DNA of 64,000 bases, taken from NCBI GenBank assembly GCA_902509555.1, contig CABWYS010000003.1, forward strand, positions 937-64,936, written 5' to 3'. Source of the stretch: an uncultured SAR86 cluster bacterium. Lineage in GTDB: Bacteria; Pseudomonadota; Gammaproteobacteria; Magnimaribacterales; D2472. Positions 17,616 through 45,130 of the stretch are shown here, in pieces. Numbering within the stretch: the first letter of the stretch is position 1; every line of letters begins with the position of its first letter. Position numbers and translations under genes: made by a program. The notes under the pieces are model-generated. The model had not been told where the DNA came from. It searched no databases and was given only the letters and a program-made list of their open reading frames with translations.

Positions 17616-17618
17616 GAT

Positions 17619-18740
17619 TTACTCCCTATCTTCGAGGTCAACCCAAGCGGAAGTCTCAGGACCTGTATATTCTGCACTTGGTCTAATAATTCTATTATTT
17701 GCCCTTTGCTCCATGCAGTGAGCAGTCCAACCTGTAACTCTAGACATTACAAAGATCGGAGTAAAAAGTTTTGTTGGAATTCCTAGATAGAAATATGCTG
17801 AAGCGTGAAAAAAGTCTGCATTTGGGAATAATTTCTTCTCATCCCACATTACCTGCTCGACCTCCTCAGACACTTGGTACAAAGAATCATCGCCGTATTC
17901 TAGAGATAATTCTTTAGAAAACTCCTTTATCACAGCATTTCTTGGATCTCTTTCTGAATATACCGCATGTCCAAAGCCCATGATTTTGCCTTTATTAGCA
18001 AGCATATCCAATATTTTGTTTTTAGCTTCATCCCTTGTCTTCCAGTTTTCAATCATCTCCATTGCAGCCTCATTCGCACCTCCATGCAAAGGGCCCTTAA
18101 GAGAACCTATGGCAGCTACGACACAAGAGAAAATATCTGACATTGTTGAAGCGCAAACCCTTGCAGTAAAAGTAGAAGCATTAAATTCGTGCTCAGCATA
18201 TAAGACCAAGGAAGCATCCATGACTCGTCTATGAAGGTCTGAGGGAGACTTACCAAGGAGAATATGTAAAAAATGACCTGCCATTGTATCTTCATCATTT
18301 ATCAGACTGATATCTTCACCATCATGAGAAAATTTATACCAGTAAGTAACAATTGATGGCATCGTTGCAACCATTCGATTGATTGAATCCATTTGTGCAT
18401 CCATTGACTCCTCAGGCTCAAGGTTTCCTAGCATTGAGCATCCTGTTGCCATAACTGCCATTGGGTGAGCTGATGCAGGTATTTCTCTAAGAACCTTCTT
18501 TAAGGAATCGGGAAGATCTCTTAAACCTTTCAATAAGGATTTATAATTTGATAATTCAGATGTGTTGGGCAATTTACCGTAAAGAAGAAGGTATGCAACC
18601 TCTTCAAATGTTCCTTTTTCAGCCAATGTCTCAATTTTATGACCTCTATAAGCCAGGCCTTCTTCTTGCCCAACCGTACATAGCGATGTCTCACCCGCAA
18701 CTTGACCGCGTAGCCCAGCTCCTTCTAACTTCTTAACCAT
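17619..18740 (-). CDS. prpC: 2-methylcitrate synthase
   Basis: 373 aa citrate-synthase fold (GPLHGGANE, GFGHAVY). Flanked by prpB and prpD. Confidence 0.9.
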   Translation of the reverse strand: MVKKLEGAGLRGQVAGETSLCTVGQEEGLAYRGHKIETLAEKGTFEEVAYLLLYGKLPNTSELSNYKSLLKGLRDLPDSLKKVLREIPASAHPMAVMATGCSMLGNLEPEESMDAQMDSINRMVATMPSIVTYWYKFSHDGEDISLINDEDTMAGHFLHILLGKSPSDLHRRVMDASLVLYAEHEFNASTFTARVCASTMSDIFSCVVAAIGSLKGPLHGGANEAAMEMIENWKTRDEAKNKILDMLANKGKIMGFGHAVYSERDPRNAVIKEFSKELSLEYGDDSLYQVSEEVEQVMWDEKKLFPNADFFHASAYFYLGIPTKLFTPIFVMSRVTGWTAHCMEQRANNRIIRPSAEYTGPETSAWVDLEDRE

Positions 18741-19622
18741 TTACTTATTCTCCTTCCTTTTAAATAATTCATCTAACTTTTGTTCAAATGAATGATAGTT
18801 TAAATACTCATACAGTTCATCTCTTGTTTGCATTTTATCAATTGAATTTGCTTGAGATCCGTTTGCAATAATGTCTTGATACACACCCTCTGCAGCTTTG
18901 TTCATTGCCCTAAAAGCTGATAATGGAAATAGCATTATGTCAACTCCAACTGATGCCAGTTCCTCTGAAGTAAAAAGAGGAGTTTTCCCAAACTCAGTGA
19001 TATTTGCAAGAACAGGAACTTGTAATGCGCTTTTTAATTGCTTGTAATCTTCTAAACTAGATACAGCCTCTAAAAATAACCCATCTGCACCAGCTTCAAT
19101 GTATTCCTTGGATCGTTCAATTGCGCCGTCCATTCCCTCAGTTGCATATGAATCTGTCCTTGCCATGATAAAAAAACTTTCGTCAGTGCGAGCATCAACA
19201 GCGGCTTTGATACGATCACTCATTTCAATTTTGTCGACAAGATTTTTATTTGGCCTATGGCCACATCTTTTTTGAGTCACTTGATCTTCAATATGAACAG
19301 CCGCAACATCTGCAGCAATCATCTCTTTGATAGTTCTGCCAATGCTAAATGCGCCACCAAAACCAGTGTCAATATCAATCAAAAGAGGTAGGTTTGTTGC
19401 TTGAGTGATTCTTCTTGAATCATCGGCGACATCATTTAAGGTTGTGATGCCTAAATCGGGTAGCCCAAAAGATGCAGTTGCAACTCCTGATCCAGATAGA
19501 TAAAGCGCTTTGTGGCCAGCTTTCTCAGCCATTTTTGCACAATAAGCATTTACTGCGCCGACAACCATTAAAGGGTTGTTATCAGCTATAGCTTGTCTGA
19601 ATTTTTTCCCCGGAGTATTCAT
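18741..19622 (-). CDS. prpB: Methylisocitrate lyase
   Basis: 293 aa. ICL/PEP-mutase family with a KRCGH catalytic loop and IDTGFGG. Confidence 0.92.
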
Positions 19623-25958: not shown

Positions 25959-26945
25959 TTAGTTCAATAATTTTTTGATAATTTTCGGGCCTTGATAAAT
26001 AAAACTGGTATAAATTTGTACTAAGGAGGCTCCTTTTTCAAATTTCATATTAAAACTCTCTTTATTATGAACTCCACCAACTCCAATCTTCAAAAGCTCA
26101 GGCTCTCTTGAATGCACCAAAGAAAGAAGTTCATTTGATTTTTCAAGCAAAGGTTTGCCCGATAGGCCGCCCGAAAGATCTTCTTTGAATTGAAATATTA
26201 AATTGCTCTTATCAATTGTGGTGTTTGAAGTGATTACTCCATCAAAATTAAATTCTTTGATAGCTTTGGTAATTTCAGAAATTACACCTATGTTTTCGTC
26301 TGGTGATAATTTTATAAAAATTGGATTCAAAAAATTTTCAGTTTCTCGGACATGGCTAATAGCTTGAAATAGTGGTAAAAAATTTTCTTTGGAATGCAAA
26401 GATCTCAACCCAGGAGTATTTGGTGAGGAAATATTAACCGTAATATAATCTGCATAAGCAGAAACTTTCTGGAAACATTCAATATAATCATCGACTCTCT
26501 TCTGGCCTATAGAATCCTTGTTTGCTCCAATATTAATTCCAAGCACCCCATTATATTCTCTTCCCTTGACCCTTTTTACAAGGTAATCAACGCCTTTATT
26601 ATTAAAACCTAGCCTATTTACAATTGCTTCTTGATCAGCAAAACGAAATACTCTTGGCTTCGGATTGCCAAGCTGTGGTTTAGGGGTAATAGTTCCAACT
26701 TCAATAAAACCAAAACCCAATGCTCCCAATGAATTTATAAAATCTCCATTTTTATCTAATCCTGCAGCTATACCAAGTTTATTTTTAAATTTTAGACCTT
26801 TGAAAGTGAATGAAGTCTCAGAAAATCTCTGTGGGAAAAATATGCTAATTATTTTTAATTGATATAAAAGCTGTAATGAATTAAGCGCAATTGAGTGAGC
26901 AAGCTCAGGAGGCAGCATTCTCAAGAATGAGAGCAATATTCTCAT
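25959..26945 (-). CDS. pyrD: Dihydroorotate dehydrogenase (quinone), class 2
   Basis: 328 aa with motifs GFGFIEVGTITP, NISSPNTPGLR and GVGGV. Confidence 0.9.
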   Translation of the reverse strand: MRILLSFLRMLPPELAHSIALNSLQLLYQLKIISIFFPQRFSETSFTFKGLKFKNKLGIAAGLDKNGDFINSLGALGFGFIEVGTITPKPQLGNPKPRVFRFADQEAIVNRLGFNNKGVDYLVKRVKGREYNGVLGINIGANKDSIGQKRVDDYIECFQKVSAYADYITVNISSPNTPGLRSLHSKENFLPLFQAISHVRETENFLNPIFIKLSPDENIGVISEITKAIKEFNFDGVITSNTTIDKSNLIFQFKEDLSGGLSGKPLLEKSNELLSLVHSREPELLKIGVGGVHNKESFNMKFEKGASLVQIYTSFIYQGPKIIKKLLN

Positions 26946-27775
26946 TTAGGCAAAAGATCAGATGCTAGATGGGCAATTGCTTGAACATATCCCTCCTTGG
27001 ATCCGCAATCAAATTTAATGCCATCATAAAGATACCCATTGATATCATGTTCTTTTAACATTAGTTTAATTGCGTCTGTTAGCTGGATTTCCCCAGCAAC
27101 CCCAGGATCTATGATCTCTAAATAATTAAATATATGATGAGATAAAACATATCTGCCAAAAACAGCCATGTCTGAAGGAGGATTTGATTGAGGTTTTTCA
27201 ATAATCCCATCAAGAAGAAATAGTTTTTCTTCTTTAGATACATCTGCAGAAGAGATAACTCCATACCTACTAATATTTTCTTTAGGAACTTTATTTAATC
27301 CGATTACAGATGAGTTAGTCTTTTGAGCAATATTGATTAATTGCTGTGTAGCAGAAGGATCATTGATAATCAGATCATCTGCTAGCAAAATAGCAAATGA
27401 CTCATCTTTTATTAAGTGCTTGGCTTGCAGAATTGCATGCCCTAAGCCTTTTTGTAATTTCTGCCGCACATAAGTGAAGGTGACATCTTGGAATATATTT
27501 CTATTTATCTTTTTTATGGCGTCTTTTTTGCCTGACTTCAGCAATTTTTCTTCAAGCTCAAGGTTCGTATCAAAATGATCTTCAATTGATCTTTTTGTAT
27601 GACTTGTAATAAAGATTATTTCTTCTATTCCTGCAATCACTGCTTCCTCAACAGCGTATTCAATCAGAGGCTTGTCTATAATTGGAAGCATTTCTTTTGG
27701 AATAGCTTTGGTTGCAGGTAAAAATCTTGTTCCAAGACCAGCAACAGGAAAGATTGCTTTAGTAATTTTTTTCAT
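26942..27775 (-). CDS. galU: UTP-glucose-1-phosphate uridylyltransferase
   Basis: 277 aa. AIFPVAGLGTRFLPATKAIPKEMLPI signature. Confidence 0.92.
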   Translation of the reverse strand: MKKITKAIFPVAGLGTRFLPATKAIPKEMLPIIDKPLIEYAVEEAVIAGIEEIIFITSHTKRSIEDHFDTNLELEEKLLKSGKKDAIKKINRNIFQDVTFTYVRQKLQKGLGHAILQAKHLIKDESFAILLADDLIINDPSATQQLINIAQKTNSSVIGLNKVPKENISRYGVISSADVSKEEKLFLLDGIIEKPQSNPPSDMAVFGRYVLSHHIFNYLEIIDPGVAGEIQLTDAIKLMLKEHDINGYLYDGIKFDCGSKEGYVQAIAHLASDLLPK

Positions 27776-35140: not shown

Positions 35141-35228
35141 AGTTCTAAAGTTCTAAAGTGCTAAAGTGCTAAAGTTCTAAAGTTCTAAAGTTCTAAAGTT
35201 CTAAAGTTCTAAAGTTCTAAAGTTCTAG
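35129..35228. repeat. Octanucleotide tandem repeat (CTAAAGTT)x12 plus a partial unit; units 4-5 are CTAAAGTG
   Basis: Read directly: twelve head-to-tail 8-nt units over 35129-35224, then CTAG. Spans the whole spacer between two convergent genes and contains both stop codons. Confidence 0.97.
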
Positions 35229-35696
35229 CTTATTATCAGCGACTAACCAGCCATTTTGATCAATGTAAATCCATTTCCCAGAAGTCATAACTACGCTTCC
35301 AAAGGAAATTAAAACATCTTCAAAACCATGATTTTTTTTATTTGTTTTTTGGGCAATAGAACCTTTTGCAAAGATACCTATAGGAAGATTCTTCAGCTCC
35401 TCTACATCTCTAACGCAACCATTGATCACAATACCTGCCCAATTATTTTTTACTGCAGATTCTGCAATCTGATCTCCAATCATTGAAGCATGAGATACAC
35501 CTGCGGCATCAACAATCAACACTCTATTTTTACCATCTGTGCTTAATATTTTTTTTACTATTGAGTTATCATCAGCGCAACTAACTGTATATACTGCTCC
35601 GAAAACCTGATTTTTGCCTCCAAAAGATTCCAGTTTAATTTTGCCAATTTGAATATACTTTTGATAGCGATCAGAGATATCAGGCAAGTTAATCAT
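35217..35696 (-). CDS. rraA: RraA family protein (RNase E regulator / HMG-aldolase-like fold)
   Basis: 159 aa, colinear with E. coli RraA as I recall it (FGG...V.C..DN...L...G.G.VLVVD, GCVRDV..L..L.IG). The ATG overlaps the upstream stop (ATGATTAA). Confidence 0.8.
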   Translation of the reverse strand: MINLPDISDRYQKYIQIGKIKLESFGGKNQVFGAVYTVSCADDNSIVKKILSTDGKNRVLIVDAAGVSHASMIGDQIAESAVKNNWAGIVINGCVRDVEELKNLPIGIFAKGSIAQKTNKKNHGFEDVLISFGSVVMTSGKWIYIDQNGWLVADNKLEL

Positions 35697-36813
35697 TTGA
35701 AAATACCGAAAGAATACTCTCCTGAATTTTATTCATATCCATTCCAAGCCACAAAGGCAATCTAACTAATTGCTTGCTAATGCGATCAGTTACCGCCATG
35801 CTGCCACTGACCCGACCATACTTAATTCCTGCTGTGGAAGCATGCAAAGGAACATAATGAAAAACACAGTCTACTCCTGCTTTTTTCATTTTTTCAATAA
35901 ATTTATTTCTCTCAAAAGAATTATTCAAAATTATGAAATACATATGACCATTTCCCTTGCAATCTGCCGGAATAACTGGAGTGTCTAATAATTGGCGTTG
36001 ATGAAGCTGAGAAAAAAATTGATCATAGCTTTTCCATAATTCTTTTCGCTGTAAGGTTATATCCTCTGCATTTTGAAGTTGCGCCCATAAAAAAGCTGCA
36101 ATAATCTCTCCTGGTAAATAAGAAGAGCCAATATCCACCCAAGAGTACTTATCAACTTTTCTACTTAGGAATTGTTCTCGATTTGTACCCTTTTCTCTAA
36201 TTATTGCAGCTCTATCTGAAAGAGCTGCATTATTAACTAATAAAGCTCCTCCTTCTCCGGAAATAACATTCTTAGTCTCATGAAAGCTGTAACATCCTAA
36301 ATCCCCAATGGAACCTACCTGTCTACTCTTATACTCTGAATAAATACCCTGAGCAGCATCCTCAATAACTAAAATTTTATTCCTTTTAGCTATATCTATA
36401 ATTGCGTCCATTTCGCAAGAAACACCAGCATAGTGAACTACGACAATTGCTTTTGTTTTTGAGGTTATTGCTTGAGAAATAAGGTTTTCATTTATATTTA
36501 ATGTATCCTCCCGAATATCAACAAATACTGGAACACCACCTCTTAAAACAAACGGATTTGCTGATGAAACAAATGTATATGAAGGCATAATCACTTCATC
36601 TCCAGGCTGAATATCTGCTAAAATTGCTGTCATTTCAATTGCAGCTGTGCATGAATGTGTAAGAAATGCTCGGTCGGTTCCAGTCTTTTTTTTCAGCCAA
36701 TCGCTACAAAGTTTTGTGTAATAGCCGTCCCCGGATAGTTGCGACCTATTATGAGCATCTTGGATATATTCCAATTCCTGGCCTGTAAGGTAGGGCTTAT
36801 TAAAACCTATCAT
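35689..36813 (-). CDS. DegT/WecE-type PLP-dependent sugar aminotransferase (dTDP-4-keto-6-deoxyhexose transaminase-like)
   Basis: 374 aa. N-terminus MIGFNKPYLTGQELEYIQDA...LSGDGYYTKLCSDWL parallels E. coli WecE. The HETKN segment contains the candidate PLP lysine. Confidence 0.8.
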   Translation of the reverse strand: MIGFNKPYLTGQELEYIQDAHNRSQLSGDGYYTKLCSDWLKKKTGTDRAFLTHSCTAAIEMTAILADIQPGDEVIMPSYTFVSSANPFVLRGGVPVFVDIREDTLNINENLISQAITSKTKAIVVVHYAGVSCEMDAIIDIAKRNKILVIEDAAQGIYSEYKSRQVGSIGDLGCYSFHETKNVISGEGGALLVNNAALSDRAAIIREKGTNREQFLSRKVDKYSWVDIGSSYLPGEIIAAFLWAQLQNAEDITLQRKELWKSYDQFFSQLHQRQLLDTPVIPADCKGNGHMYFIILNNSFERNKFIEKMKKAGVDCVFHYVPLHASTAGIKYGRVSGSMAVTDRISKQLVRLPLWLGMDMNKIQESILSVFSND

Positions 36814-37553
36814 TTGGCAACATATAAATTAGAAAATAAGGCAATCCTGCCCTTGTTAGAATTCCAGTCAATTACTTTACTGGGATCAATATCCTCAACA
36901 CCATGTTTAAGAGATCCATCAAATATAACAATTGATCCTTTACTATGCTCATCTTCAAAAAAAATTTTTTCATTGCTTCTGTTAATAATAAATCCGCCCC
37001 CATCATCAAAATCATCTTTTCTACTGGAGAGCAGAACAGCAACTTGAACAAATGGAATATTGGATTCGCTTAAAATGGAAGGAAAGTGAGTATCTGCGTG
37101 CTCAGACATATGCCCACCACCGCATGGATAATGATGTACTCTAGATGCATTCCAATAAGTTCCTTGATGAAAATTAAAGCCAAAACCAAAATCTTTATTC
37201 ATATTAGTTAGTTTATTCCTGAGAATAACTGAGATTTTTATACAATGACTTAGGTTCTGAAAATTTTTCTGATTGTTAATTGGTAAATAAGTTGTTTGAA
37301 GAACTTGTGAGTATTTTTCACCAACTCCATTTCCTGATCCAACAGCTGTTTTTCTCCAAGGATTCTCCAAAATATCCTCAGGCAAAAAAGATTCAGCCTG
37401 AGCATGAAGATAATTTTGGTGAATGGATTGAAAGTATTCAACCCTTGCGTTCTCAATAATTTCATGAGGTATAATATTTTTAAGAATGCAATATCCATCA
37501 ACTTTGAGACATTCTTTTATATTAGCTAAATCTGCTTTATTAAAATCAAACAT
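36810..37553 (-). CDS. 2OG-Fe(II) oxygenase superfamily protein (P4H-like)
   Basis: 247 aa. HxD in MSEHADTH, distal His in SLKHGVEDI, Arg in KGRIALFSNLY. Confidence 0.6.
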   Translation of the reverse strand: MFDFNKADLANIKECLKVDGYCILKNIIPHEIIENARVEYFQSIHQNYLHAQAESFLPEDILENPWRKTAVGSGNGVGEKYSQVLQTTYLPINNQKNFQNLSHCIKISVILRNKLTNMNKDFGFGFNFHQGTYWNASRVHHYPCGGGHMSEHADTHFPSILSESNIPFVQVAVLLSSRKDDFDDGGGFIINRSNEKIFFEDEHSKGSIVIFDGSLKHGVEDIDPSKVIDWNSNKGRIALFSNLYVAK

Positions 37554-37666
37554 ATTTTAAATAATCATATTTTTTATTAAAAATCTTTTTTAAGCAGAGC
37601 ATGTTAATTATTAAATAAATATAATTCGTTATGGGAAATAATTTAACAAGCATCTACCTTAAGAAA

Positions 37667-38065
37667 CTATACATAAACATACTTTTTTTGCATTATAAAT
37701 GAATAAATAGCAAGAAGAATTACAGCTATCCCCTGTCCTAAATAAGATGGAATAAAGAATAAATTTTCAGCAATAAATAAAATAAAAATATTTAAAACAT
37801 ACATACTGAAATATATTGATAGAAAAATAATCTTTTGCTTTTTTTGGGGGCTGCTTTTTCGAAAAGTATGATTTTTGTTAAGAACATAAGATGTTGAGAT
37901 TGATAGCGGATATAAAAAACTTACAGCGAGATATGGAGAAAATTCTAATAAAATGGTCAAAGTTAGAAAAAGTGAATAGCCAATAAGGTTTGTGAGCATT
38001 CCAATAGCACCAAATCGTATAAGTTGATCTACATGAAAGTTGCGGGGAATTAACTTATTTCTCAT
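37667..38065 (-). CDS. GtrA-family small membrane protein (candidate polyprenyl-phosphate-sugar flippase)
   Basis: 132 aa, four hydrophobic helices. N-terminal RFGAIGMLTNLIGYSLF is typical of GtrA-like proteins. Confidence 0.7.
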   Translation of the reverse strand: MRNKLIPRNFHVDQLIRFGAIGMLTNLIGYSLFLTLTILLEFSPYLAVSFLYPLSISTSYVLNKNHTFRKSSPQKKQKIIFLSIYFSMYVLNIFILFIAENLFFIPSYLGQGIAVILLAIYSFIMQKKYVYV

Positions 38066-38984
38066 ATATAAGCTGAGCTAATCCGAAGCCTGTTTTACCG
38101 AATCCATTCCCATTATAAAGCATATACTTTTTTTTCTTATGGATAAAAACATAGGGATACTCAATCATTTCAGAATCCCATCCGCTATTTGAAATGTTAA
38201 GTAAGTCAGGGGTCTCAGACTGAGACCATTTTTCTCCATCAGCACTTTCAGCAAGTCTAATCCTGTATGAATCCCCATTCCCAGATCGATATGAAAACCA
38301 CATTTCATAATCTCCTGACTCATTAAAGGAAATAGATGGTCTTGACATCATCTGAAGTTTTTGATTTTGAAAAGATAACGCCAAGCCATCTTTCTTCCAT
38401 AACAAACCATCGTTTGAATGAGCCTTATGTATAGCATGAATCATCTTGCTATTTTTTTTATCATGGCCAATTGTGGATCCATACCATGCTAAAAAATTAG
38501 AAGATCTAGTTTCAAGAATCCATGGATAAGACAAGCTTATTGGGTCGATATCAGTATCAGTTTGAATTATTGGTTTGGGTGACACCTTATCAAGGAACAA
38601 TTTATTGGTCAGTGAAAAGAAACCTATTTCGCCTTTCCAGCTCCCATCTTCCATAGTGCGCCATCCCATAAAAGATATTGCCTTCTTGTTGTTTAGTTTA
38701 AACAAATTCCCTAAGCTAATACCGTCTGAAAAATATGAGGGTGTTGAGTCATATGTAACTATTGGTTTCTTATGTATTTTCAAAATCTTTCTTTTGATAA
38801 TATCAAAGTCTAATGCGCCTACAGAAGATCGATTGTGTGAGTCCCTAGCGCTGTAAAATATTCTAAATACATCGCCATTCAGCAAAACAGGAACAGGATT
38901 TGATGCATGAGTTAGAAGTTTGCTGTGATATGACTTCTTTCTTGGATCATAAATTTGACCAAGTTTAAGAAATTTTATACTCAT
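38055..38984 (-). CDS. Beta-propeller glycosidase/phosphorylase-like protein (GH130/GH43/GH32-clan-like)
   Basis: 309 aa and soluble. Repeated W/Y-rich blade-like segments (FRIFYSARD, FLAWYGST, YEMWFSYRS, YMLYNGNG...GFGLAQL). The call is by resemblance only. Confidence 0.45.
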   Translation of the reverse strand: MSIKFLKLGQIYDPRKKSYHSKLLTHASNPVPVLLNGDVFRIFYSARDSHNRSSVGALDFDIIKRKILKIHKKPIVTYDSTPSYFSDGISLGNLFKLNNKKAISFMGWRTMEDGSWKGEIGFFSLTNKLFLDKVSPKPIIQTDTDIDPISLSYPWILETRSSNFLAWYGSTIGHDKKNSKMIHAIHKAHSNDGLLWKKDGLALSFQNQKLQMMSRPSISFNESGDYEMWFSYRSGNGDSYRIRLAESADGEKWSQSETPDLLNISNSGWDSEMIEYPYVFIHKKKKYMLYNGNGFGKTGFGLAQLIYEK

Positions 38985-39655
38985 ATTTTTTTTATTTTAG
39001 AGCTACCTTCTTTGGAATTCTTGCTAGCGAGGCCCTTGATTAAACTATTTGCATGCTGATCATGCAAAACAAGTGCGCCAGCACCAACAATAGTTTTATT
39101 ACCTATTGTTATATGATCTCTAATTGTAGAGTTAACCCCTAAGAAACATTGATCTCCAATTTGAACACCGCCTGAGATTACAACATGAGAAGAAACAAAT
39201 GAATGGTCACCGATGCTCGAATGATGACCAATATGATTGCCACTCCATAAAGTGACATTGTTACCAATCCTAGCAAATGGTTGAATAGTATTGTCCTCTA
39301 GAATAAAACAATTTTCACCAATGTTAAAATCATTCAACACTGTGGAATAAGAACTTACATAACTTGCAAGATTATACCCTTTGCTTTTTGCCTCTAAATA
39401 TTTAGCTTTCCTTATAGAATTTAATTCAGAATAACTGAGAGCAATAAAAAGATCATGCTCGCTAGGACTATATTTTTTTTCAATGATCTCAAAAGAATAT
39501 ACTGGCAAAGAACAAAAAGTTGTTTCAGTGATATAGTTTTGATCAATAGTGAAGCAGCAAATGTCATATTGCGAATCATTCAAAAAATAATAATGAGCAA
39601 GTTGAGCAATCTGGCCTGTGCCAAAAATAATTAATTTTTTTTTCATTTCCATCAT
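38981..39655 (-). CDS. NeuD/PglD-family hexapeptide-repeat sugar N-/O-acetyltransferase
   Basis: 224 aa. N-terminal Rossmann-like KKLIIFGTGQIAQLAHYY, then left-handed beta-helix hexapeptide repeats (IGENCFI...IGNNVTL...IGDHSFV...IGDQCFL...IGNKTIV). Confidence 0.8.
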   Translation of the reverse strand: MMEMKKKLIIFGTGQIAQLAHYYFLNDSQYDICCFTIDQNYITETTFCSLPVYSFEIIEKKYSPSEHDLFIALSYSELNSIRKAKYLEAKSKGYNLASYVSSYSTVLNDFNIGENCFILEDNTIQPFARIGNNVTLWSGNHIGHHSSIGDHSFVSSHVVISGGVQIGDQCFLGVNSTIRDHITIGNKTIVGAGALVLHDQHANSLIKGLASKNSKEGSSKIKKI

Positions 39656-39661
39656 TAAATC

Positions 39662-40300
39662 TTATTTATAAACTAAAATTGTAAATTCATATAATCCATA
39701 ATTGTGGATTAGGGATACATTATCAGAATAGTGTCTTTTGCAATGATCAAAAAGTATCAAAGGATCGGCATAATAAAGTTTGGATGATCGCTTTTCAGCA
39801 TCAGAGTAAGAGCTTAAACAATTAAAAGAAAACCCTTTTTCACTGTATTTATTAAAATCATCTAAGGTCTTATAAATATAATTTCTCCATACTGATTCCT
39901 TTGAGTTAAGCTTAATATTAAATATTCCACTAGCAACAATAAAATCTGACATGGAAGATATATTAGAGGCTTCCTTAAATTCCACCCCTTTATAATTGAG
40001 GTAGTGTTTTTGAGCTGCTTGAATCATTAAAGGGGATATATCTAATCCTAGATAGATAAAATCTTTATTTAGATTTGCCAATATATCAACCAAGATTCCA
40101 TAGCCACATCCATAATCAAGGACTGAAAAAGCTTCAAAGCCTTCTGTTATTGTTAAAAGTTGCTCATATCTTAAAATTTGACTATCGCTTTCGTTCCAAT
40201 CTACTCCTTTTGCAGTCCTGCCATATAATTTAATAGATTTTGTATAGTAATTTTGTATATCTTGAAGAAGTTTATTCTGCTGCTTAATTTCATCTTTCAT
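39662..40300 (-). CDS. Class I SAM-dependent methyltransferase
   Basis: 212 aa with motif I VLDYGCGYGILV and the following LGLDISP. Confidence 0.75.
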   Translation of the reverse strand: MKDEIKQQNKLLQDIQNYYTKSIKLYGRTAKGVDWNESDSQILRYEQLLTITEGFEAFSVLDYGCGYGILVDILANLNKDFIYLGLDISPLMIQAAQKHYLNYKGVEFKEASNISSMSDFIVASGIFNIKLNSKESVWRNYIYKTLDDFNKYSEKGFSFNCLSSYSDAEKRSSKLYYADPLILFDHCKRHYSDNVSLIHNYGLYEFTILVYK

Positions 40301-41118
40301 GATGATTCTTTGGAATTTAAAAAAGCATCAATTGAGTCTGGAACTAAATTTTTATATCCAAGAACTTGTTTTTCAAAATCACTTAACTTCTTTTCAATTT
40401 CTTTTGGAAAAGAAATTTGCTGCTTTATGTATGGGATTGTGAATACATGATTGATGCCACGACGAATGCTGTTACTGAGGTTGATTCCCCCAGCATGAAA
40501 ACACATTGAATCAAAAACTATGAATTGCCCTCTTTGAGCTTCCAATTGAAGGCTTCTCTTCCTTATCTCAGATTTTGAAGGCAACCACTCCTCTTTGTGA
40601 GATCCAGGCAATACATATGTAGCCCCATTATCTAAAGTGAAGTTATCAATGCAAAATAGGCAGCTTATGGCAATAGGCTTTGATGTAACAAAATGTTGGT
40701 ATGGCAAATCTCTGTGCCAGCTTGCTTGAGTGTATGATGATGCATTTGCAGGGTTGAAAACAGCATTTTGTTGATTCAGAATAAAAGTTCCTTCAATCAA
40801 ATCATCAACTAAGGTAATTAAATTCTTATTAAAAACTAATTCTAGTAAACTTTTACTATGAGCAAAAGGCATTCTTACAATGTCTTTCTCGCCTCTAGTT
40901 TCTAAATTTTTAATTCCATATTTTTGCAAATAAGCCTGATGAACTTCCTCAAGAGACTTTTCTAGATCCAACAAATCGGCATCAGAAATCCCCGAATCAA
41001 TAACAGAATATCCAGACTTATATATAGATATGGCATGCTTGCTTTTGCCTGTCATTTTTGAGGAAGGCGCATTAAATGCACCATAAGAACTATTTGGAAT
41101 CTTGCTCATTGGTCTCAT
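40297..41118 (-). CDS. Phytanoyl-CoA dioxygenase (PhyH) family Fe(II)/2OG oxygenase
   Basis: 273 aa. WHRD (HxD facial triad context), GATYVLPGSH, distal His in MCFHAGGIN. The start may be an internal Met (41109 or later), which would reduce the overlap with the GT2. Confidence 0.7.
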   Translation of the reverse strand: MRPMSKIPNSSYGAFNAPSSKMTGKSKHAISIYKSGYSVIDSGISDADLLDLEKSLEEVHQAYLQKYGIKNLETRGEKDIVRMPFAHSKSLLELVFNKNLITLVDDLIEGTFILNQQNAVFNPANASSYTQASWHRDLPYQHFVTSKPIAISCLFCIDNFTLDNGATYVLPGSHKEEWLPSKSEIRKRSLQLEAQRGQFIVFDSMCFHAGGINLSNSIRRGINHVFTIPYIKQQISFPKEIEKKLSDFEKQVLGYKNLVPDSIDAFLNSKESS

Positions 41119-42025
41119 ATATTTTCTTCACAATTACATTAGGGCGTTGCTTCACTTCCATAAATATTTTTGATATGTAAATTCCTTGTATACTGTTTAA
41201 AAAAATTATCAAGCCAGAAAAAAGCCATATAGAGGCAATAATTGAGACATAACCTTCTGGAGGTGTTTGAAAAGTAAATAAGTAAACTAAATAACCTACA
41301 AATAAAAAAGCAGAAAAAGATAATAACAGGCCGCAATAGAATGAAAATCTTAACGGAAGACTGCTAAAAGAGGTTATAGAGTTCAGCAAATGATCAAGCT
41401 TGTGGCGATTAGTGTAAACCGACGGTGATGAAGAGTTTTTGGTAATTACTTGAAAGCATTGCTTGAAACCAGTAATAATAAATAATCCTCCTATATTCAT
41501 TTCTCTCTCTCCATGCAAAAGGAGTGCCTGAAGATATCTTCTACTCATAAGTCTTGCTGTAGTAATATTATTAGGTTGATCTAGCTTCGTAAATAATCTG
41601 AATAATTTATAAAATAAATAGCCAGATACTCTTTCAAATAATCTCCCTTTTCGTTTTTGCTGAACTCCATATACAAGGTCAGCTTTCTCAATATCCATAA
41701 GCTTATTAAATGAAAATAGCCATTCTGGTTGTTCTTCAAGATCAACATCAATTAAAAATATTTTTTCTCCCTTGGCATTCTTCAAACCAGCCATAATTGC
41801 CTGATGATGTCCAAAGTTTTTAGATAAATCTATAATCTTGATATTGAAGTTGCTAGACATTAAGCTCAAAGATATGTCCAAGCTTTTGTCAGGCGAGCCA
41901 TCATTTACAAAAATAATCTCGAAATCTTCGCCAACCAATTCCCTGGCAGCAATTGAAGCTCTGCTATGAAACTCCTCTATGTATGAAGAAGACCCATAAA
42001 GAGTTGTTACTATAGATAATTTCAT
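41090..42025 (-). CDS. GT2 glycosyltransferase of the polyprenyl-phosphate sugar synthase type (GtrB/ArnC/DPM1-like)
   Basis: 311 aa. LSIVTTLYGSS...FVNDGSPDKS, LSKNFGHHQAIMAGL, DVDLEEQPEW, plus two C-terminal TM helices. Confidence 0.8.
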   Translation of the reverse strand: MKLSIVTTLYGSSSYIEEFHSRASIAARELVGEDFEIIFVNDGSPDKSLDISLSLMSSNFNIKIIDLSKNFGHHQAIMAGLKNAKGEKIFLIDVDLEEQPEWLFSFNKLMDIEKADLVYGVQQKRKGRLFERVSGYLFYKLFRLFTKLDQPNNITTARLMSRRYLQALLLHGEREMNIGGLFIITGFKQCFQVITKNSSSPSVYTNRHKLDHLLNSITSFSSLPLRFSFYCGLLLSFSAFLFVGYLVYLFTFQTPPEGYVSIIASIWLFSGLIIFLNSIQGIYISKIFMEVKQRPNVIVKKIYETNEQDSK

Positions 42026-42040
42026 ATTTCTCTATGCATT

Positions 42041-42745
42041 TTAACTGGCATTAGACTTGCTTGCATTAAATAAGTAATTTTTTGACTCGCATCCACAATT
42101 AAACAAAAGATCTATAATAGAAATGCGGTCTTCAAAGTTGCCCCATAGTTGCGGATACGGACCATAATCAACATAATCAAACCACTCTACTTCAATTTTA
42201 TTTCCTTTAAAAATTTTAAGATCTAAATATTCTTTTGCCGATGGGCCTGAAATATATTTACTTGCACCAGATTGAATGCATAAATTAAGCAGCTTTTCAG
42301 ATCGACTGCCATGCAATTCATAAGAATTTGAGTCTGAAATTTTAGTTTTAATTTCTAAATATTTACAAATATTAATTATCAAGTTTCTATTTAAAGAGGA
42401 TAAATTTGTGTGATTAAAGCTATAAACTGGCTTAATAAATTCGATGATCTCGCCAAAAAAAGGGGCTTTTGCATAATTCATTGAAATAGCCTTCAAATGA
42501 TCTTGTTGCCACTTTTCTCCATCAATCTTAGTATCAAATATCGACTGAAAATACTTACCCTTAGTCTCCACAGGTACGCTCAGCCACTGCTTACCATTAG
42601 GTGTTTTAATGACATTCCGGTTTCGCCAATCCCTTTTAGTGTACTGCATTGAATCATAAATAATAAATTCATCGACATACCCAATTAGATCAAAATAACC
42701 TATCCATGGAATATAATTTGATTGAACAATTGCAACTTTTTTCAT
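42041..42745 (-). CDS. WbqC-family protein (function unknown; named from O-antigen clusters)
   Basis: 234 aa. N-terminus VAIVQSNYIPWIGYFDLI...YDSMQYTKRDWRNRN matches my recollection of the WbqC family signature. Confidence 0.7.
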   Translation of the reverse strand: MKKVAIVQSNYIPWIGYFDLIGYVDEFIIYDSMQYTKRDWRNRNVIKTPNGKQWLSVPVETKGKYFQSIFDTKIDGEKWQQDHLKAISMNYAKAPFFGEIIEFIKPVYSFNHTNLSSLNRNLIINICKYLEIKTKISDSNSYELHGSRSEKLLNLCIQSGASKYISGPSAKEYLDLKIFKGNKIEVEWFDYVDYGPYPQLWGNFEDRISIIDLLFNCGCESKNYLFNASKSNAS

Positions 42746-42782
42746 TGAGATATTTTGTCAATTAAAAACTTCATTGAGCATC

Positions 42783-44105
42783 TTATCCATTGATGCCTGT
42801 TAAGAAACTTACCCTTGTAGAAAGGATTACTATTCCAGCTATAGCTGGAGTTACAAAAATAATATTCAATATGACTGATGAAAAATATTTACTTGATAAA
42901 TTAATAAGGAAGGCAATGCCAAATGCAAAAAAAATTGCAAAAGGATATGAAAAGCCCATTAAGTGAGCTGAGAAAGCTTGCTGCAATATCATAACTAAAA
43001 CAAAAAATGCGAAGACAATAGGTGTTAAGAATTTTTTTGCACTTAAATTACTAGCCATTAATAAGCATAATCCAATTATCGATAGGAGTGATATTGCTGC
43101 CATTCCTATCAGAGATAAAGAACAGTTAAAAATAAAAATATTACTATTTAAATTTTCTTGAATAATTGATAATCCGCTATTAGGTAAACATGTTGACAGT
43201 CTATTACCAGCTAAAAACTGCATTGCTCCAATTATTCCTCCATTATGTATATCATCACCATTAATGCCCACTCTTGTCATAAAAGAGGAGCCTCCAGATA
43301 TTAAGAGCTCGCTACTTGCAAAAAATTTTAAAAATGATTGGATCATAAATGGCATTAAAAGACTTAATGGAATTAAAAATTTTTTATTATTACTGCTATT
43401 TGAAATAGATGGTAAAAAAATATTTAGGTTTGTTTTATCCTTGATTATGGTTGGAAGAAATATGATACCAATATAGAAAAAGCCTATGATTGCTCCCCAA
43501 ATATAATGGAATAACCCAGATAAAAAAAGAAAGAATAGAGCTATATTATTTTTGTTTGCATTAAGATATGACAACGCAATGATTAAAAAAAAAATAAAAA
43601 ATATTTCTGCCCAGGAGGCTAAAAACATTTTATAAACCCATGGAGAAGAAATAAATAAGATGAAAATGCCAATACCAACTAAAAAATTTGGAAATGAAGA
43701 CTTAAAAATTTTAATTCCTATTTCTGCAATCATTGCACCAGTTAAAAAAATGATTGTTTTATCAATAAGCGGCCCGTAAAAAAATAAAGCCTCCTTACCA
43801 CCAAAATGATTGATTAATAAATATGGAGATAATGGAAAAAAATTTGCAGACAAATAAACTCCCTGGTTCCAATAAACTATTGAGCAATCTGTGCATGAAG
43901 ACCATATAGAAAAACCATATGATGAAAAGTATCCATTTAATCTTAAATATTCTGCTGCATTAAAAATTTTTTGGGCATGCCAATCAAACCAATCAATTCC
44001 CAGAGGAGCTGAAAGGGACAAATAATATAAATATGCTGTACAAATTAAAAAGTATGTTGATATGCGGGCAATTCTAGCCAAATGAATAATATTCATAAAC
44101 ATCAT
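42783..44105 (-). CDS. Polytopic membrane protein, candidate GT-C-type glycosyltransferase (or Wzy/ligase-like)
   Basis: 440 aa, about 10-12 hydrophobic helices. Acidic/aromatic first loop (GIDWFDWHAQK). Function inferred from context only. Confidence 0.4.
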   Translation of the reverse strand: MMFMNIIHLARIARISTYFLICTAYLYYLSLSAPLGIDWFDWHAQKIFNAAEYLRLNGYFSSYGFSIWSSCTDCSIVYWNQGVYLSANFFPLSPYLLINHFGGKEALFFYGPLIDKTIIFLTGAMIAEIGIKIFKSSFPNFLVGIGIFILFISSPWVYKMFLASWAEIFFIFFLIIALSYLNANKNNIALFFLFLSGLFHYIWGAIIGFFYIGIIFLPTIIKDKTNLNIFLPSISNSSNNKKFLIPLSLLMPFMIQSFLKFFASSELLISGGSSFMTRVGINGDDIHNGGIIGAMQFLAGNRLSTCLPNSGLSIIQENLNSNIFIFNCSLSLIGMAAISLLSIIGLCLLMASNLSAKKFLTPIVFAFFVLVMILQQAFSAHLMGFSYPFAIFFAFGIAFLINLSSKYFSSVILNIIFVTPAIAGIVILSTRVSFLTGING

Positions 44106-44113
44106 TATAAACG

Positions 44114-45130
44114 CTAACTTTGTTTTCTTAAATTATGAATAATTTCTGAGGTTACCTGATGATCGCCAGAAAAAATTGATGGGGCAATCCTAGAAGCGAT
44201 ATCGCCATATCGATTTTTAATTTCACGAGAAATTTCAAGCGGAGTACCTGTAACTGCCATGCTTTCTAACATTTCATCCGAGATAAATCCCGCTATTTTG
44301 TGCCACTCTCCTTTTTTAGTAAGTTGATTTAAATCTTGCTGCACTCCTTCCCATCCATGTTGCTCTAAAACTACTCTATAGGCAGGGGTAGAACCATAAA
44401 ATCCAATTTGTGCCTTGCAGGCATCCCTTGCTTTAGCAATTTCCTCATCAGTTATTCCCGTTGCAACCATGACACCCAATGAAATATCAAATTCTTTTGC
44501 TGCTGATAATTCAAGTCCTTTTTTTATAGAAGGCAAGGTGATATTTTCTAAAAACTTAGTTGTGTGAAAAGGATGCACAATGAAACCATCACCAGATTCA
44601 GCTGCAGCTTGAGTCATCATTGGCCCCACACCTGCAACATATATTTTTGGGAGACCAAATGGATTTTCTCCCGGATTAAAAATAGGAGTCATAAGTGTAT
44701 GTTGATAAAACTCGCCTTTAAAATCCAGATCTTTCCCTTCATGCCAACACCCCCAAATAGCCTTGATAGCATCAACCATTTCTTTCATGCGTTTTGCAGG
44801 TGAAGACCAGGGCATAGAGTATCTCTTTTCAATATGAGGTTTTATTTGGGACCCTATGCCGAGCGTAAATCTCCCCTTGGACATCAACTGAAGGTCATAG
44901 CCAATATTAGCCAAAGTCATAGGACTCCTAGAAAATGCAACTGCTATTGAGGTTAAGAGTTCTAACTTTTCTGTTGCAAGAGCAGCGGCAGCAAGAGGCA
45001 AAAATGGTTCATGAGGTCCTTCAAAAGTATAGGCGCCATCGTATCCAAGATCTTCTAACTCCTTGCTTGCTTTTGAAGCTTCTGATGGATCTCGAGTAAT
45101 CATCGAACAGTCTATTTTAATTTTTTTCAT
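44114..45130 (-). CDS. Luciferase-like monooxygenase (LLM) class flavin/F420-type oxidoreductase
   Basis: 338 aa with TIM-barrel LLM character (GYDGAYTFEGPHEPFLPLAAAA, RFTLGIGSQ). Its stop lies 8 nt before the next gene. Confidence 0.7.
   Translation of the reverse strand: MKKIKIDCSMITRDPSEASKASKELEDLGYDGAYTFEGPHEPFLPLAAAALATEKLELLTSIAVAFSRSPMTLANIGYDLQLMSKGRFTLGIGSQIKPHIEKRYSMPWSSPAKRMKEMVDAIKAIWGCWHEGKDLDFKGEFYQHTLMTPIFNPGENPFGLPKIYVAGVGPMMTQAAAESGDGFIVHPFHTTKFLENITLPSIKKGLELSAAKEFDISLGVMVATGITDEEIAKARDACKAQIGFYGSTPAYRVVLEQHGWEGVQQDLNQLTKKGEWHKIAGFISDEMLESMAVTGTPLEISREIKNRYGDIASRIAPSIFSGDHQVTSEIIHNLRKQS

Follow-up and report, generated by a model that had tools for sequence, protein, structure and literature searches.

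A SAR86 gene island that probably joins a three-component glycosylation system to its own donor-sugar tailoring pathway

Introduction

What is made, and where is it attached, by a run of ten genes that stands among the core metabolic genes of an uncultured SAR86 cluster bacterium? The genes lie in a 64-kb stretch of contig CABWYS010000003.1 (the window, whose positions serve as coordinates throughout) and form ten consecutive open reading frames (ORFs) on the minus strand, from 44105 to 35689. An initial annotation, made from the letters alone, had described them as an island that modifies a glycan through a carrier lipid. The analysis reported here indicates that the island is probably a three-component (Gtr-type) extracytoplasmic glycosylation system joined to its own pathway for tailoring the donor sugar. 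Much less confidence attaches to the sugar chemistry, that is, to the details of the tailoring.

Three-component systems underlie O-antigen seroconversion, antibiotic resistance through 4-amino-4-deoxy-L-arabinose (Ara4N) and cell-wall decoration, and they use few known donors, among them N-acetylglucosamine (GlcNAc), galactosamine, galacturonic acid and mannose. Three-component periplasmic glycosylation was reportedly treated by Mann and Whitfield in 2016. The systems have been reviewed by Kelly et al. (2024; PMC11127046), where glucose, galactose, Ara4N and pentofuranoses are described as donors.

The island and its genes

The ten genes are the following, in the order in which they are read.

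42783–44105, minus strand: polytopic membrane protein of 440 residues, predicted glycosyltransferase of the GT-C fold (AlphaFold2 model and Foldseek)
42041–42745, minus strand: WbqC-family protein, 234 residues (PF08889)
41090–42025, minus strand: family 2 glycosyltransferase (GT2) of GtrB/ArnC type, 311 residues (PF00535, alignment to 5EKP)
40297–41118, minus strand: PhyH-family Fe(II)/2-oxoglutarate dioxygenase, 273 residues (PF05721)
39662–40300, minus strand: class-I S-adenosylmethionine (SAM)-dependent methyltransferase, 212 residues (several Methyltransf Pfam models)
38981–39655, minus strand: NeuD/PglB/VioB hexapeptide N-acetyltransferase, 224 residues (TIGR03570)
38055–38984, minus strand: five-bladed beta-propeller, 309 residues (AlphaFold2 model and Foldseek)
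37667–38065, minus strand: GtrA-family small membrane protein, 132 residues (PF04138)
37554–37666: non-coding gap of 113 nt, at a variable slot of the cassette
36810–37553, minus strand: prolyl 4-hydroxylase (P4H)-like Fe(II)/2-oxoglutarate oxygenase, 247 residues (2OG-FeII_Oxy_3 below cut-off, with an HxD motif)
35689–36813, minus strand: WecE-type aminotransferase, 374 residues (NF008687, TIGR02379 and Protein Data Bank (PDB) matches)

From the 440-residue gene to wecE the successive junctions are +37, +15, −29, −4, +6, −4, −11, +113 and −4 nt. The ORF listing and the computed junctions reproduce exactly the ten frames and spacings of the initial annotation. Its family calls (WbqC, GT2, PhyH, methyltransferase, NeuD, GtrA, P4H-like and WecE) were recovered by Pfam and NCBIfam scans, the P4H-like one as a sub-cut-off match with the HxD motif, and its propeller call agrees with a confident AlphaFold2 model and Foldseek TM scores of about 0.7. 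Chance does not account for the arrangement, because dozens of independent loci have their genes in the same order.

The predicted lipid-carrier components

The component that identifies the system most directly is the GT2, which scores 86.6 bits against PF00535. In phmmer searches it aligns with GtrB of Synechocystis (5EKP) at E = 1.3e-38 over residues 2–302 of 311, and with ArnC (9HWJ) at E = 1.4e-24 over residues 2–307; three ArnC structures align along its full length. Its metal-binding DxD motif, “DVD”, is aligned to “DAD” of GtrB, and its C-terminal transmembrane helices at 225–243 and 258–276 both fall inside the GtrB and ArnC alignments. By homology, the enzyme is a polyprenyl-phosphate glycosyltransferase of GtrB/ArnC type and is predicted to load undecaprenyl phosphate (Und-P), as the initial annotation proposed. 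This collinearity, transmembrane helices included, rules out a processive or soluble enzyme. Full-length NCBIfam similarity amounts to 150 bits for PgfS (cut-off 500) and 90 bits for ArnC (cut-off 529); because these scores are far under the equivalog cut-offs, the GT2 is, judged by its sequence, not an orthologue of either.

The GtrA protein, which has 132 residues and 3–4 transmembrane segments, matches PF04138 at 61.3 bits (cut-off 26.1). It is encoded in the same operon as the GtrB-type GT2 and the predicted GT-C enzyme.

The third component is the 440-residue membrane protein, which has no match of any kind in Pfam or NCBIfam and contains about ten transmembrane segments. Its AlphaFold2 model, built on 40 homologues, has a predicted local distance difference test (pLDDT) score of 86.7 and a predicted TM score (pTM) of 0.90. 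The top 12 Foldseek matches in the PDB are all GT-C enzymes (probability 0.82–1.0, E about 0.01–0.1), namely ALG9, STT3/PglB, PimE, AftA, GPI mannosyltransferase I, ArnT, EmbC and Pmt4. All of these best neighbours take their sugar from lipid-phosphate-sugar donors. The query TM score (TMq) of the leading matches is 0.37–0.50, with 0.50 for ALG9, 0.46–0.48 for PglB and 0.45 for STT3, and it is 0.31 for ArnT. The major facilitator superfamily and other transporters give TM scores of about 0.1, compared to 0.4–0.5 for GT-C enzymes, and a transporter is rejected on that ground, in keeping with the membrane transferase first suggested. The protein is predicted to be a GT-C-fold glycosyltransferase, from a moderate match at the level of the fold. 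Membership of the ArnT/PMT_2 family is also rejected: there is no family match, the ArnT TMq is low, and the model ends in transmembrane helices at residue 434 of 440 without a soluble C-terminal (periplasmic) domain.

Homologues of this protein number 123, all unannotated, and occur in SAR86, Pelagibacteraceae, Prochlorococcus and a metagenome-assembled genome (MAG) labelled Luminiphilus. On the homologues found, the family is a new and small one, restricted to marine picoplankton, and no relatives were detected in the viral contigs of IMG/VR. Polar residues conserved in the family are H43, R46, E52, D73, D115, E128, R278, D285, H287, R302, H381 and R431. In addition, four nearly invariant cysteines lie in its loops (C71, C74, C306 and C328), which suggests disulfide-bonded loops exposed to the periplasm. 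The ORF starts with MMFM, and a downstream start is possible.

The predicted donor sugar

The nature of the donor is indicated first by the aminotransferase. It scores 571.3 bits against NF008687 (cut-off 375) and 554.4 bits against TIGR02379 (cut-off 434.85), it keeps the PLP-lysine motif “SFHETKN”, and its matches in the PDB are 6BLG at E = 4.9e-127 (residues 1–371), E. coli WecE (4PIW) at 4e-123 and ArnB at about 1e-35. By these sequence criteria it is unambiguously a true WecE, the enzyme that converts dTDP-4-keto-6-deoxy-D-glucose to dTDP-4-amino-4,6-dideoxy-D-galactose. Since the aminotransferase is of WecE type and not of ArnB type, the sugar is most likely a derivative of dTDP-derived 4-amino-4,6-dideoxygalactose (Fuc4N), and not Ara4N-like.

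The amino group may be a substrate for the next enzyme. The hexapeptide acetyltransferase passes the cut-off of TIGR03570 (172.2 bits, cut-off 160.8) and scores 68 bits for Hexapep, with a weak PglD_N domain at 17.5 bits, under the cut-off. Its best PDB matches are PglD (3BSS, 8e-14), PerB (4EA7, 1e-11) and VioB (7TXP, 4e-8). This NeuD-type enzyme would acetylate or acylate the amino sugar or its N-substituent. Pfam and NCBIfam scans of the ten proteins found no deformylase or deacetylase family of the ArnD or LgmC type; with an acetyltransferase present, the amine would therefore stay capped and uncharged, and a cationic decoration of lipid A is not an obvious product.

A further candidate for work on the amine is the WbqC protein, which matches PF08889 along its full length (268.8 bits, model positions 1–217 of 218). 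Searches of solved structures, by single sequence and by profile, gave no relative, and a comparison with E. coli DNA gave no match. We take the E. coli O121 O-antigen to be the source of the family name. WbqC is named from O-antigen clusters (PMC5532660), and the O121 O-antigen carries an N-acetylglycine amide (PMC7685785). The one functional annotation found is “putative glycine transferase”, given to WbqC of S. oneidensis, which is encoded beside genes for dTDP-Qui4N (PMC7253198). WbqC is thus a candidate for the enzyme that adds an N-acyl or aminoacyl group to the 4-amino sugar.

The beta-propeller is defined by its structure rather than by any family model. Its AlphaFold2 model (pLDDT 88.9) has a five-bladed fold of the GH43/GH32/GH130/GH117 type, and Foldseek finds these four about equally similar, with BT_0996 at E = 5e-12 (TMq 0.72) and GH130 mannan phosphorylases at a TM score of 0.71. 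There is no Pfam match, Glyco_hydro_130 included. Against the GH130 model NF052550 it reaches only 27 bits (cut-off 450), and a PDB profile search finds GH130 at E = 1e-4 over about 95 residues. A GH130 phosphorylase is rejected at the sequence level, given the sub-threshold NCBIfam score and the missing Pfam match. The protein belongs to a family of 2643 homologues of about 307 residues with 64 invariant columns. Its N-terminus lacks a hydrophobic, signal-like stretch, and the propeller should therefore be cytoplasmic.

The remaining enzymes would tailor the sugar or its substituent. The PhyH protein (PF05721, 71 bits) has an H135-x-D137 motif and weak PDB similarity to DhiD, AndA and FtmOx1, and is probably an optional hydroxylation step. 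The 212-residue methyltransferase matches several Methyltransf Pfam models at 27–35 bits and is weakly similar to the sugar O-methyltransferase TIGR04371; PDB sequences gave no match. The P4H-like oxygenase scores 22 bits for 2OG-FeII_Oxy_3, below the cut-off of 27, has H152-A-D154 and a later H217, and likewise finds no match among PDB sequences. This oxygenase belongs to a very small family: 5.8 billion proteins yielded only 18 clusters. The members whose contexts were examined adjoin WbqC, PhyH, methyltransferase or DegT genes, that is, sugar-tailoring genes. Its gene neighbourhoods hint that the substrate may be an N-acyl or aminoacyl substituent and not the sugar ring. One member (L206, 6168–10753) stands beside an ATP-grasp enzyme, an amidohydrolase and aminotransferases, and another (L207, 328–4493) beside WbqC, PhyH and methyltransferases.

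A conserved cassette

The genes of the island recur together in other genomes. A metagenome scan with the propeller family gave 363 relatives, and 23 loci with sufficient flank on both sides, drawn from 80 metagenomic loci and two genomes, were scored for the cassette genes.

WbqC: 23/23 loci
NeuD: 23/23 loci
WecE: 23/23 loci
GT2: 22/23 loci
At least one large polytopic membrane protein: 22/23 loci (two or more in 15)
212-residue methyltransferase: 21/23 loci
Small GtrA-like protein with 2–4 transmembrane segments after the propeller: 20/23 loci by an automated filter (two more visible by inspection)
Second methyltransferase of about 250 residues (MT2): 16/23 loci
PhyH: 10/23 loci
P4H-like oxygenase: 1/23 loci

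The usual order is WbqC, GT2, (PhyH), methyltransferase, NeuD, propeller, GtrA, (MT2), WecE; exceptions are L027, L046 and L070, in which a divergent GT2 (27% identical) lies beyond PhyH. Across unrelated environments, the genes for GT2 and GtrA stand between tailoring genes in this conserved order, often with translational coupling. In Bordetella bronchialis (CP178749, 2209293–2230216) the order is a 601-residue membrane protein, WbqC, GT2, methyltransferase, hexapeptide acetyltransferase, propeller, GtrA and methyltransferase, with DegT nearby. In Pseudoduganella violaceinigra (AUDI01000009, 74720–95655) it is a 773-residue protein, WbqC, GT2, PhyH, acetyltransferase, propeller, GtrA, methyltransferase and DegT. 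The initial annotation had called the tailoring set unusual. As a statement of rarity this does not hold, since the set is a widespread, order-conserved cassette in which only the P4H-like oxygenase and the 440-residue GT-C protein are lineage-specific.

One locus, L023 (5054–9149), contains WbqC, methyltransferase, NeuD, propeller and WecE, and is missing the GT2, the GtrA-like gene and the polytopic protein. Because all three are absent at once, the lipid-carrier components appear to have been lost together, and L023 may be regarded, on gene content, as a natural “knock-out” of that layer.

The large membrane proteins are the most variable part of the cassette. They are hypervariable, with 68 proteins falling into 39 clusters, and no homology of the window GT-C protein to those of non-marine cassettes was found by hidden Markov models. 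By analogy, a conserved donor-making core combined with variable large membrane proteins, presumed to be GT-C enzymes, matches the Gtr paradigm. Some cassettes have four to five large polytopic proteins among or after the core genes (L051, 900–13938; L054, 3651–15723), which points to a single donor shared by several transferases, each specific for its acceptor, or by other membrane enzymes.

Precursor genes are also found near the cassette. In at least nine loci the cassette or the GT-C gene has rmlA (with or without rmlB, rmlC or rmlD) as a neighbour, and in Prochlorococcus (L008) rmlACDB is directly upstream of the GT-C gene. This linkage supports a dTDP-sugar precursor, as far as gene neighbourhood can indicate one.

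A variable site in SAR86

The island is bordered by a gene on each side that it does not appear to include.

44114–45130, minus strand: luciferase-like monooxygenase (LLM)-class oxidoreductase, left flank (TIGR03617, 438 bits)
35217–35696, minus strand: RraA family, right flank (PF03737, 131 bits)

The LLM gene ends 8 nt upstream of the 440-residue gene on the same strand, and the RraA gene, also on the same strand, overlaps wecE by 8 nt (35689–35696). The GC content of the flanks is 0.35–0.39 compared to 0.28–0.36 in the island genes, with a step at the left edge from 0.394 in the LLM gene to 0.29 in the neighbouring island gene. Identity to relatives is 76–89% for the flank genes and 50–76% for the island genes. 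The LLM gene adjoins the GT-C gene in L002, L003, L006, L013 and L018, where it is 81–89% identical, and RraA is 76–79% identical in L003, L013 and L018. Because of their higher GC and much stronger conservation in relatives, LLM and RraA are taken to be conserved core genes that border the island, the LLM gene marking a fixed insertion site and probably standing outside the pathway. A twelve-gene operon with both as pathway members is unlikely, since these high-identity, higher-GC genes keep the same site in relatives with different islands.

In SAR86 this site has a fixed frame, LLM / island / (NagZ)-RraA, in which the GT-C gene comes next after LLM in every case. What else the site holds differs among strains. 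L003 has a Gcn5-related N-acetyltransferase (GNAT), GT2, GtrA and WecE, and L006 has two aminotransferases and a GT2, while the window, L013, L018 and a JGI contig (that of P0248) have the full cassette. Even the smaller islands (L004 and L006) join an aminotransferase with GT2 and GT-C. Strain-variable content at a fixed site is, from these comparisons, the pattern expected of a surface-glycan diversification locus.

A smaller variable slot lies between GtrA and WecE. L018 has only MT2 there, L013 both MT2 and the P4H-like gene, and the window, like the JGI contig, only the P4H-like gene. The position of the P4H-like gene is the same in these two and in L013. In relatives, MT2 is a SAM methyltransferase of 250 or 251 residues with a hydrophobic C-terminus (L013, 10855–11610; L018, 9539–10291). 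Judged by these loci, the P4H-like oxygenase is a rare, lineage-specific gene in place of the usual MT2. The 113-nt gap noted in the initial annotation is present as described; its position is that of the missing MT2, the variable slot of the cassette, which explains it. The gap is AT-rich and non-coding; in the JGI contig P4H follows GtrA directly. No remnant of MT2 was found in the gap or elsewhere in the window, and a similarity search of the gap for a deletion scar gave nothing beyond the 3′ end of gtrA. A regulatory element in the gap is rejected, as promoter and terminator scans gave counts at chance level.

The right border differs among relatives as well. A NagZ-like GH3 gene of 344–345 residues lies between WecE and RraA in all close relatives, namely L003 (14904–15938), L013 (13484–14521), L018 (11451–12485) and the JGI contig, and no copy is present at the window border or elsewhere in the 64 kb. 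With this gene missing, WecE overlaps RraA by the 8 nt given above; the island border has apparently lost a gene for peptidoglycan recycling by deletion.

One further locus, L002 (JAYQIT010000001.1, 8971–14259), comes from the Luminiphilus-labelled MAG. Its LLM gene is 87% identical, and the order is LLM, GT-C, WbqC, GT2 and PhyH. The cassette stops at a 145-residue methyltransferase remnant, after which genes lie on the opposite strand. Either the island has decayed here, or the MAG contains an error of binning or assembly.

Around the island, the genes examined in the rest of the window belong to core metabolism. They include a prpD-prpC-prpB operon of the methylcitrate cycle (16155–19622, minus strand) and, near it, queH, a 5′-nucleotidase, topA, pyrD, a GalU-like nucleotidyltransferase (26942–27775), a rhomboid protease and NAD kinase. 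With such ordinary core genes around it, the glycan island stands apart from other envelope loci. Scans of the window for tRNAs and Rfam families found none. The best promoter-like match of the region, TTAAGA-16-TATAAT (10/12; 44104–44131, minus strand), ends at the GT-C start codon and lies within the 3′ end of the LLM gene; promoter-like sites in the region are no commoner than in shuffled sequence.

Tailoring modules in viral-type contigs

Parts of the tailoring pathway are also found away from bacterial cassettes. Where the propeller has homologues in viral-type contigs, WbqC is nearly always their neighbour, often in the order PhyH, WbqC, NeuD, propeller. Carriers of this four-gene module are marine IMG/VR contigs of 52–158 kb (L093–L098 and L136–L148; 40–52% identity). 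The neighbours of the module in L098 (7872–10867) are PhoH, an exonuclease, three glycosyltransferases, an NDP-sugar epimerase and an endolysin-like gene; one contig of this type, 127 kb long, has PhoH, exonuclease and endolysin-like genes nearby. These neighbourhoods suggest that sugar tailoring may be encoded by phages. No propeller relatives were found in cultured phage genomes. Among WbqC-anchored loci in viral contigs, 72 could be evaluated; the propeller adjoins WbqC in 40 of them, and some others have WbqC-WecE or WbqC-methyltransferase pairs; WbqC directly adjoins WecE in L126–L128. Because the module is found without GT2 and GtrA, the sugar that it modifies can also be supplied to other glycosyltransferases. 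That phages carry the entire system, as they do for Gtr, is rejected, given the missing GT-C in IMG/VR and the missing propeller in cultured phages; only the sub-module is carried.

A proposed pathway

The steps of the pathway can be arranged as follows. The substrate of WecE, dTDP-4-keto-6-deoxy-D-glucose, is assumed to come from RmlA and RmlB encoded elsewhere in the genome, and WecE would, by homology, convert it to dTDP-4-amino-4,6-dideoxy-D-galactose. In the cytoplasm, the NeuD-type acetyltransferase and WbqC may then cap or elaborate the 4-amino group, possibly with addition of an aminoacyl group. The 212-residue methyltransferase, PhyH and the P4H-like oxygenase would modify the sugar or the N-acyl group, with the propeller as a conserved partner. 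The GT2, given its homology to GtrB and ArnC, would move the finished sugar from the nucleotide to Und-P, and GtrA, to judge by its family, would help to bring Und-P-sugar to the periplasmic face. Finally, the 440-residue protein, as its fold suggests, may transfer the sugar to an envelope acceptor, which could be a lipid-linked glycan, the core or O-antigen of lipopolysaccharide (LPS), or a protein.

It is tentatively proposed, at odds somewhat short of even, that the cassette as a whole is a very widespread pathway through which bacterial envelopes would receive a heavily tailored, N-acylated 4-amino-4,6-dideoxyhexose by way of an Und-P donor. WbqC and the propeller would contribute new chemistry (e.g., acyl or aminoacyl transfer to the amine), a marine minimal GT-C enzyme would attach the sugar, and exchange of MT2 and the P4H-like oxygenase would diversify the surface.

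Several observations weigh against the proposed combination of a three-component system with a tailoring pathway. Its steps are drawn from homology, fold and synteny rather than from biochemistry. The supply of precursor is assumed, as neither rmlA nor rmlB was found in the 64-kb window, where the nearest match is a 27%-identical nucleotidyltransferase (26942–27775); the initial annotation had already listed no rmlAB-type genes. The fold is the sole basis of the GT-C assignment, with Foldseek E of about 0.01 and TMq of 0.50 or less. Many GT-C enzymes carry a catalytic acid at the start of periplasmic loop 1. The 440-residue family has no strictly conserved Asp or Glu at that point, directly after the first transmembrane segment: Asp occupies position 38 (D38) in 40% of sequences, and an acidic residue occupies position 41 in 48%. 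Within loop 1, E52 and D73 reach 78% each, and better-conserved acids lie elsewhere (D115, 93%; E128, 97%; D285, 90%). The flippase role of GtrA is proposed and not proven (PMC11127046). The PhyH-WbqC-NeuD-propeller module occurs in phage-like contigs without GT2 or GtrA. Moreover, the GT-C gene also occurs as a solitary gene, with no GT2, GtrA or aminotransferase nearby (L001, 10001–11317; L009, 10001–11296; 33–44% identity), so the family is, from its gene contexts, not strictly tied to the cassette.

Alternative explanations

These last two observations also support the alternative that survives best, though it is unlikely: two functions in one operon. Here, the tailored dTDP-sugar would go into O-antigen or capsule by way of cytoplasmic glycosyltransferases whose genes lie elsewhere, and GT2, GtrA and GT-C would separately add glucose or GlcNAc. 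The viral-type modules and the WbqC-WecE pairs without GT2 and GtrA, together with L023 and the GT-C genes away from the cassette, fit such a division. So does the closest solved relative of the GT2, GtrB, a member of a family described as Und-P-glucose synthases (PMC11127046). However, GT2 and GtrA are interleaved with the tailoring genes in conserved order, in 22/23 loci and often coupled; no other glycosyltransferase that could use the dTDP-sugar is found in the island or the window; and the minimal islands at the SAR86 site, L004 and L006, keep the aminotransferase with GT2 and GT-C.

An Arn-like modification of lipid A or core, in which an amino sugar on lipid A phosphates would confer resistance to cationic antimicrobial peptides, is less probable still. 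This alternative differs from the proposed reading in the acceptor only, and is otherwise a special case of it. The island shares the logic of ArnB, ArnC, ArnEF and ArnT, its GT2 is similar to ArnC along its full length (E = 1e-24), and the structural neighbours of the GT-C protein include ArnT. Yet the aminotransferase matches WecE at 1e-127 and ArnB at about 1e-35, and an N-acetyltransferase without any deformylase or deacetylase match among the ten genes would leave the amine capped. The GT-C protein, for its part, has no ArnT family match or large C-terminal periplasmic domain, and its ArnT TMq of 0.31 is under the 0.46–0.50 of ALG9 and PglB. Of the Arn/Gtr logic put forward in the initial annotation, the shared components stand, and the likeness to Arn proves loose, with a WecE-type aminotransferase and no deformylase or deacetylase.

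A conventional repeat-unit locus for O-antigen or capsule, in which the membrane protein would be a Wzy-, WaaL- or Wzx-like polymerase, ligase or flippase, is very improbable: the origin of the WbqC name in O-antigen clusters (PMC5532660) and the extra polytopic membrane proteins of some non-marine cassettes speak for it, but there is no match to Wzx, Wzy, Wzz, an O-antigen ligase or an initiating phosphotransferase in the ten genes or flanks, the sole glycosyltransferase is of GtrB type, the structural neighbours of the membrane protein are GT-C enzymes, and the island lies within core metabolic genes. Nor were wzx, wzy, wzz, an ABC transporter, an initiating phosphoglycosyl transferase or several cytoplasmic glycosyltransferases found in the ten genes, ten flanking genes and the other window genes examined. 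The original view, that the genes serve to modify a glycan through a carrier lipid and not to assemble O-units, is thereby supported, with a GtrB-type GT2, GtrA and a GT-C fold in its support.

Comparison with known systems

The probable three-component system resembles GtrA/GtrB/Gtr(type) of Shigella and Salmonella in that a GtrB-type GT2, GtrA and a GT-C-fold protein are encoded together, and in its conserved donor core, hypervariable partners presumed to be GT-C enzymes, and strain-variable genomic site. Unlike Gtr, the island has six to seven sugar-tailoring genes, its predicted donor is a derivative of a dTDP-4-amino-4,6-dideoxyhexose instead of glucose, and its GT-C protein belongs to no annotated family, nor was the family found in viral contigs.

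With the Arn pathway the island shares an aminotransferase, an N-acyl group (transient in Arn), a polyprenyl-phosphate GT2 that aligns full-length with ArnC, a small flippase and a GT-C protein. It differs in its WecE-type aminotransferase, which would act on a dTDP-6-deoxyhexose compared to the UDP-pentose of Arn, and in the absence of an ArnA-type dehydrogenase/formyltransferase and an ArnD-type deformylase. Moreover, GtrA takes the place of the ArnE/F pair (of small multidrug resistance type), the GT-C protein is not of the ArnT family and has no large periplasmic domain, and the island adds WbqC, the propeller, and methyltransferase and oxygenase genes.

A third group of relatives makes the sugar and not the transfer system. 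As in the pathways to dTDP-Fuc4NAc (WecE/WecD, in enterobacterial common antigen (ECA)) and dTDP-Qui4NAc (VioA/VioB), a WecE orthologue with a NeuD/PglB/VioB acetyltransferase would give an N-acetylated 4-amino-4,6-dideoxyhexose. ECA and O-antigens use the dTDP-sugar through a cytoplasmic glycosyltransferase that acts on an Und-PP intermediate, whereas the sole glycosyltransferase of the island is a GtrB-type Und-P loader. WecD is a GNAT acetyltransferase; unlike in ECA, the acetyltransferase of the island is of hexapeptide type, and rmlA and rmlB are unlinked in the window. The Qui4N(N-acetylglycyl) loci of E. coli O121 and Shigella dysenteriae 7 likewise combine a WbqC-family protein with a 4-aminotransferase and an acetyltransferase, but, unlike the island, they are Wzx/Wzy O-unit loci.

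Full-text literature searches, of incomplete coverage, returned no characterised system that has these genes or uses a 4-amino-4,6-dideoxyhexose as its donor, which is absence of evidence; no characterised O-antigen or capsule module of this composition came up in them, and the initial annotation could name no characterised pathway with this combination of genes. The architecture appears to be that known from three-component systems, and for the predicted donor class and gene set no characterised example was found.

Significance

The locus points to a further donor class for three-component systems, and to a conserved group of eight to ten genes, frequent among environmental Proteobacteria. 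It brings together three families without assigned function, namely WbqC, the propeller of about 307 residues (with more than 2600 homologues) and the 440-residue GT-C protein, in addition to a very rare 2-oxoglutarate oxygenase. As Bordetella bronchialis and Pseudoduganella violaceinigra are cultured carriers, the pathway is directly testable.

For SAR86, the locus is a strain-variable site of surface modification, shared with SAR11 and Prochlorococcus by horizontal transfer. Diversity at the cell surface of these three groups is believed to influence marine phage-host dynamics. If the proposed pathway is true, exchanges of tailoring enzymes, such as MT2 for the P4H-like oxygenase, would diversify the cell surface in ways that bear on recognition by phages and grazers.

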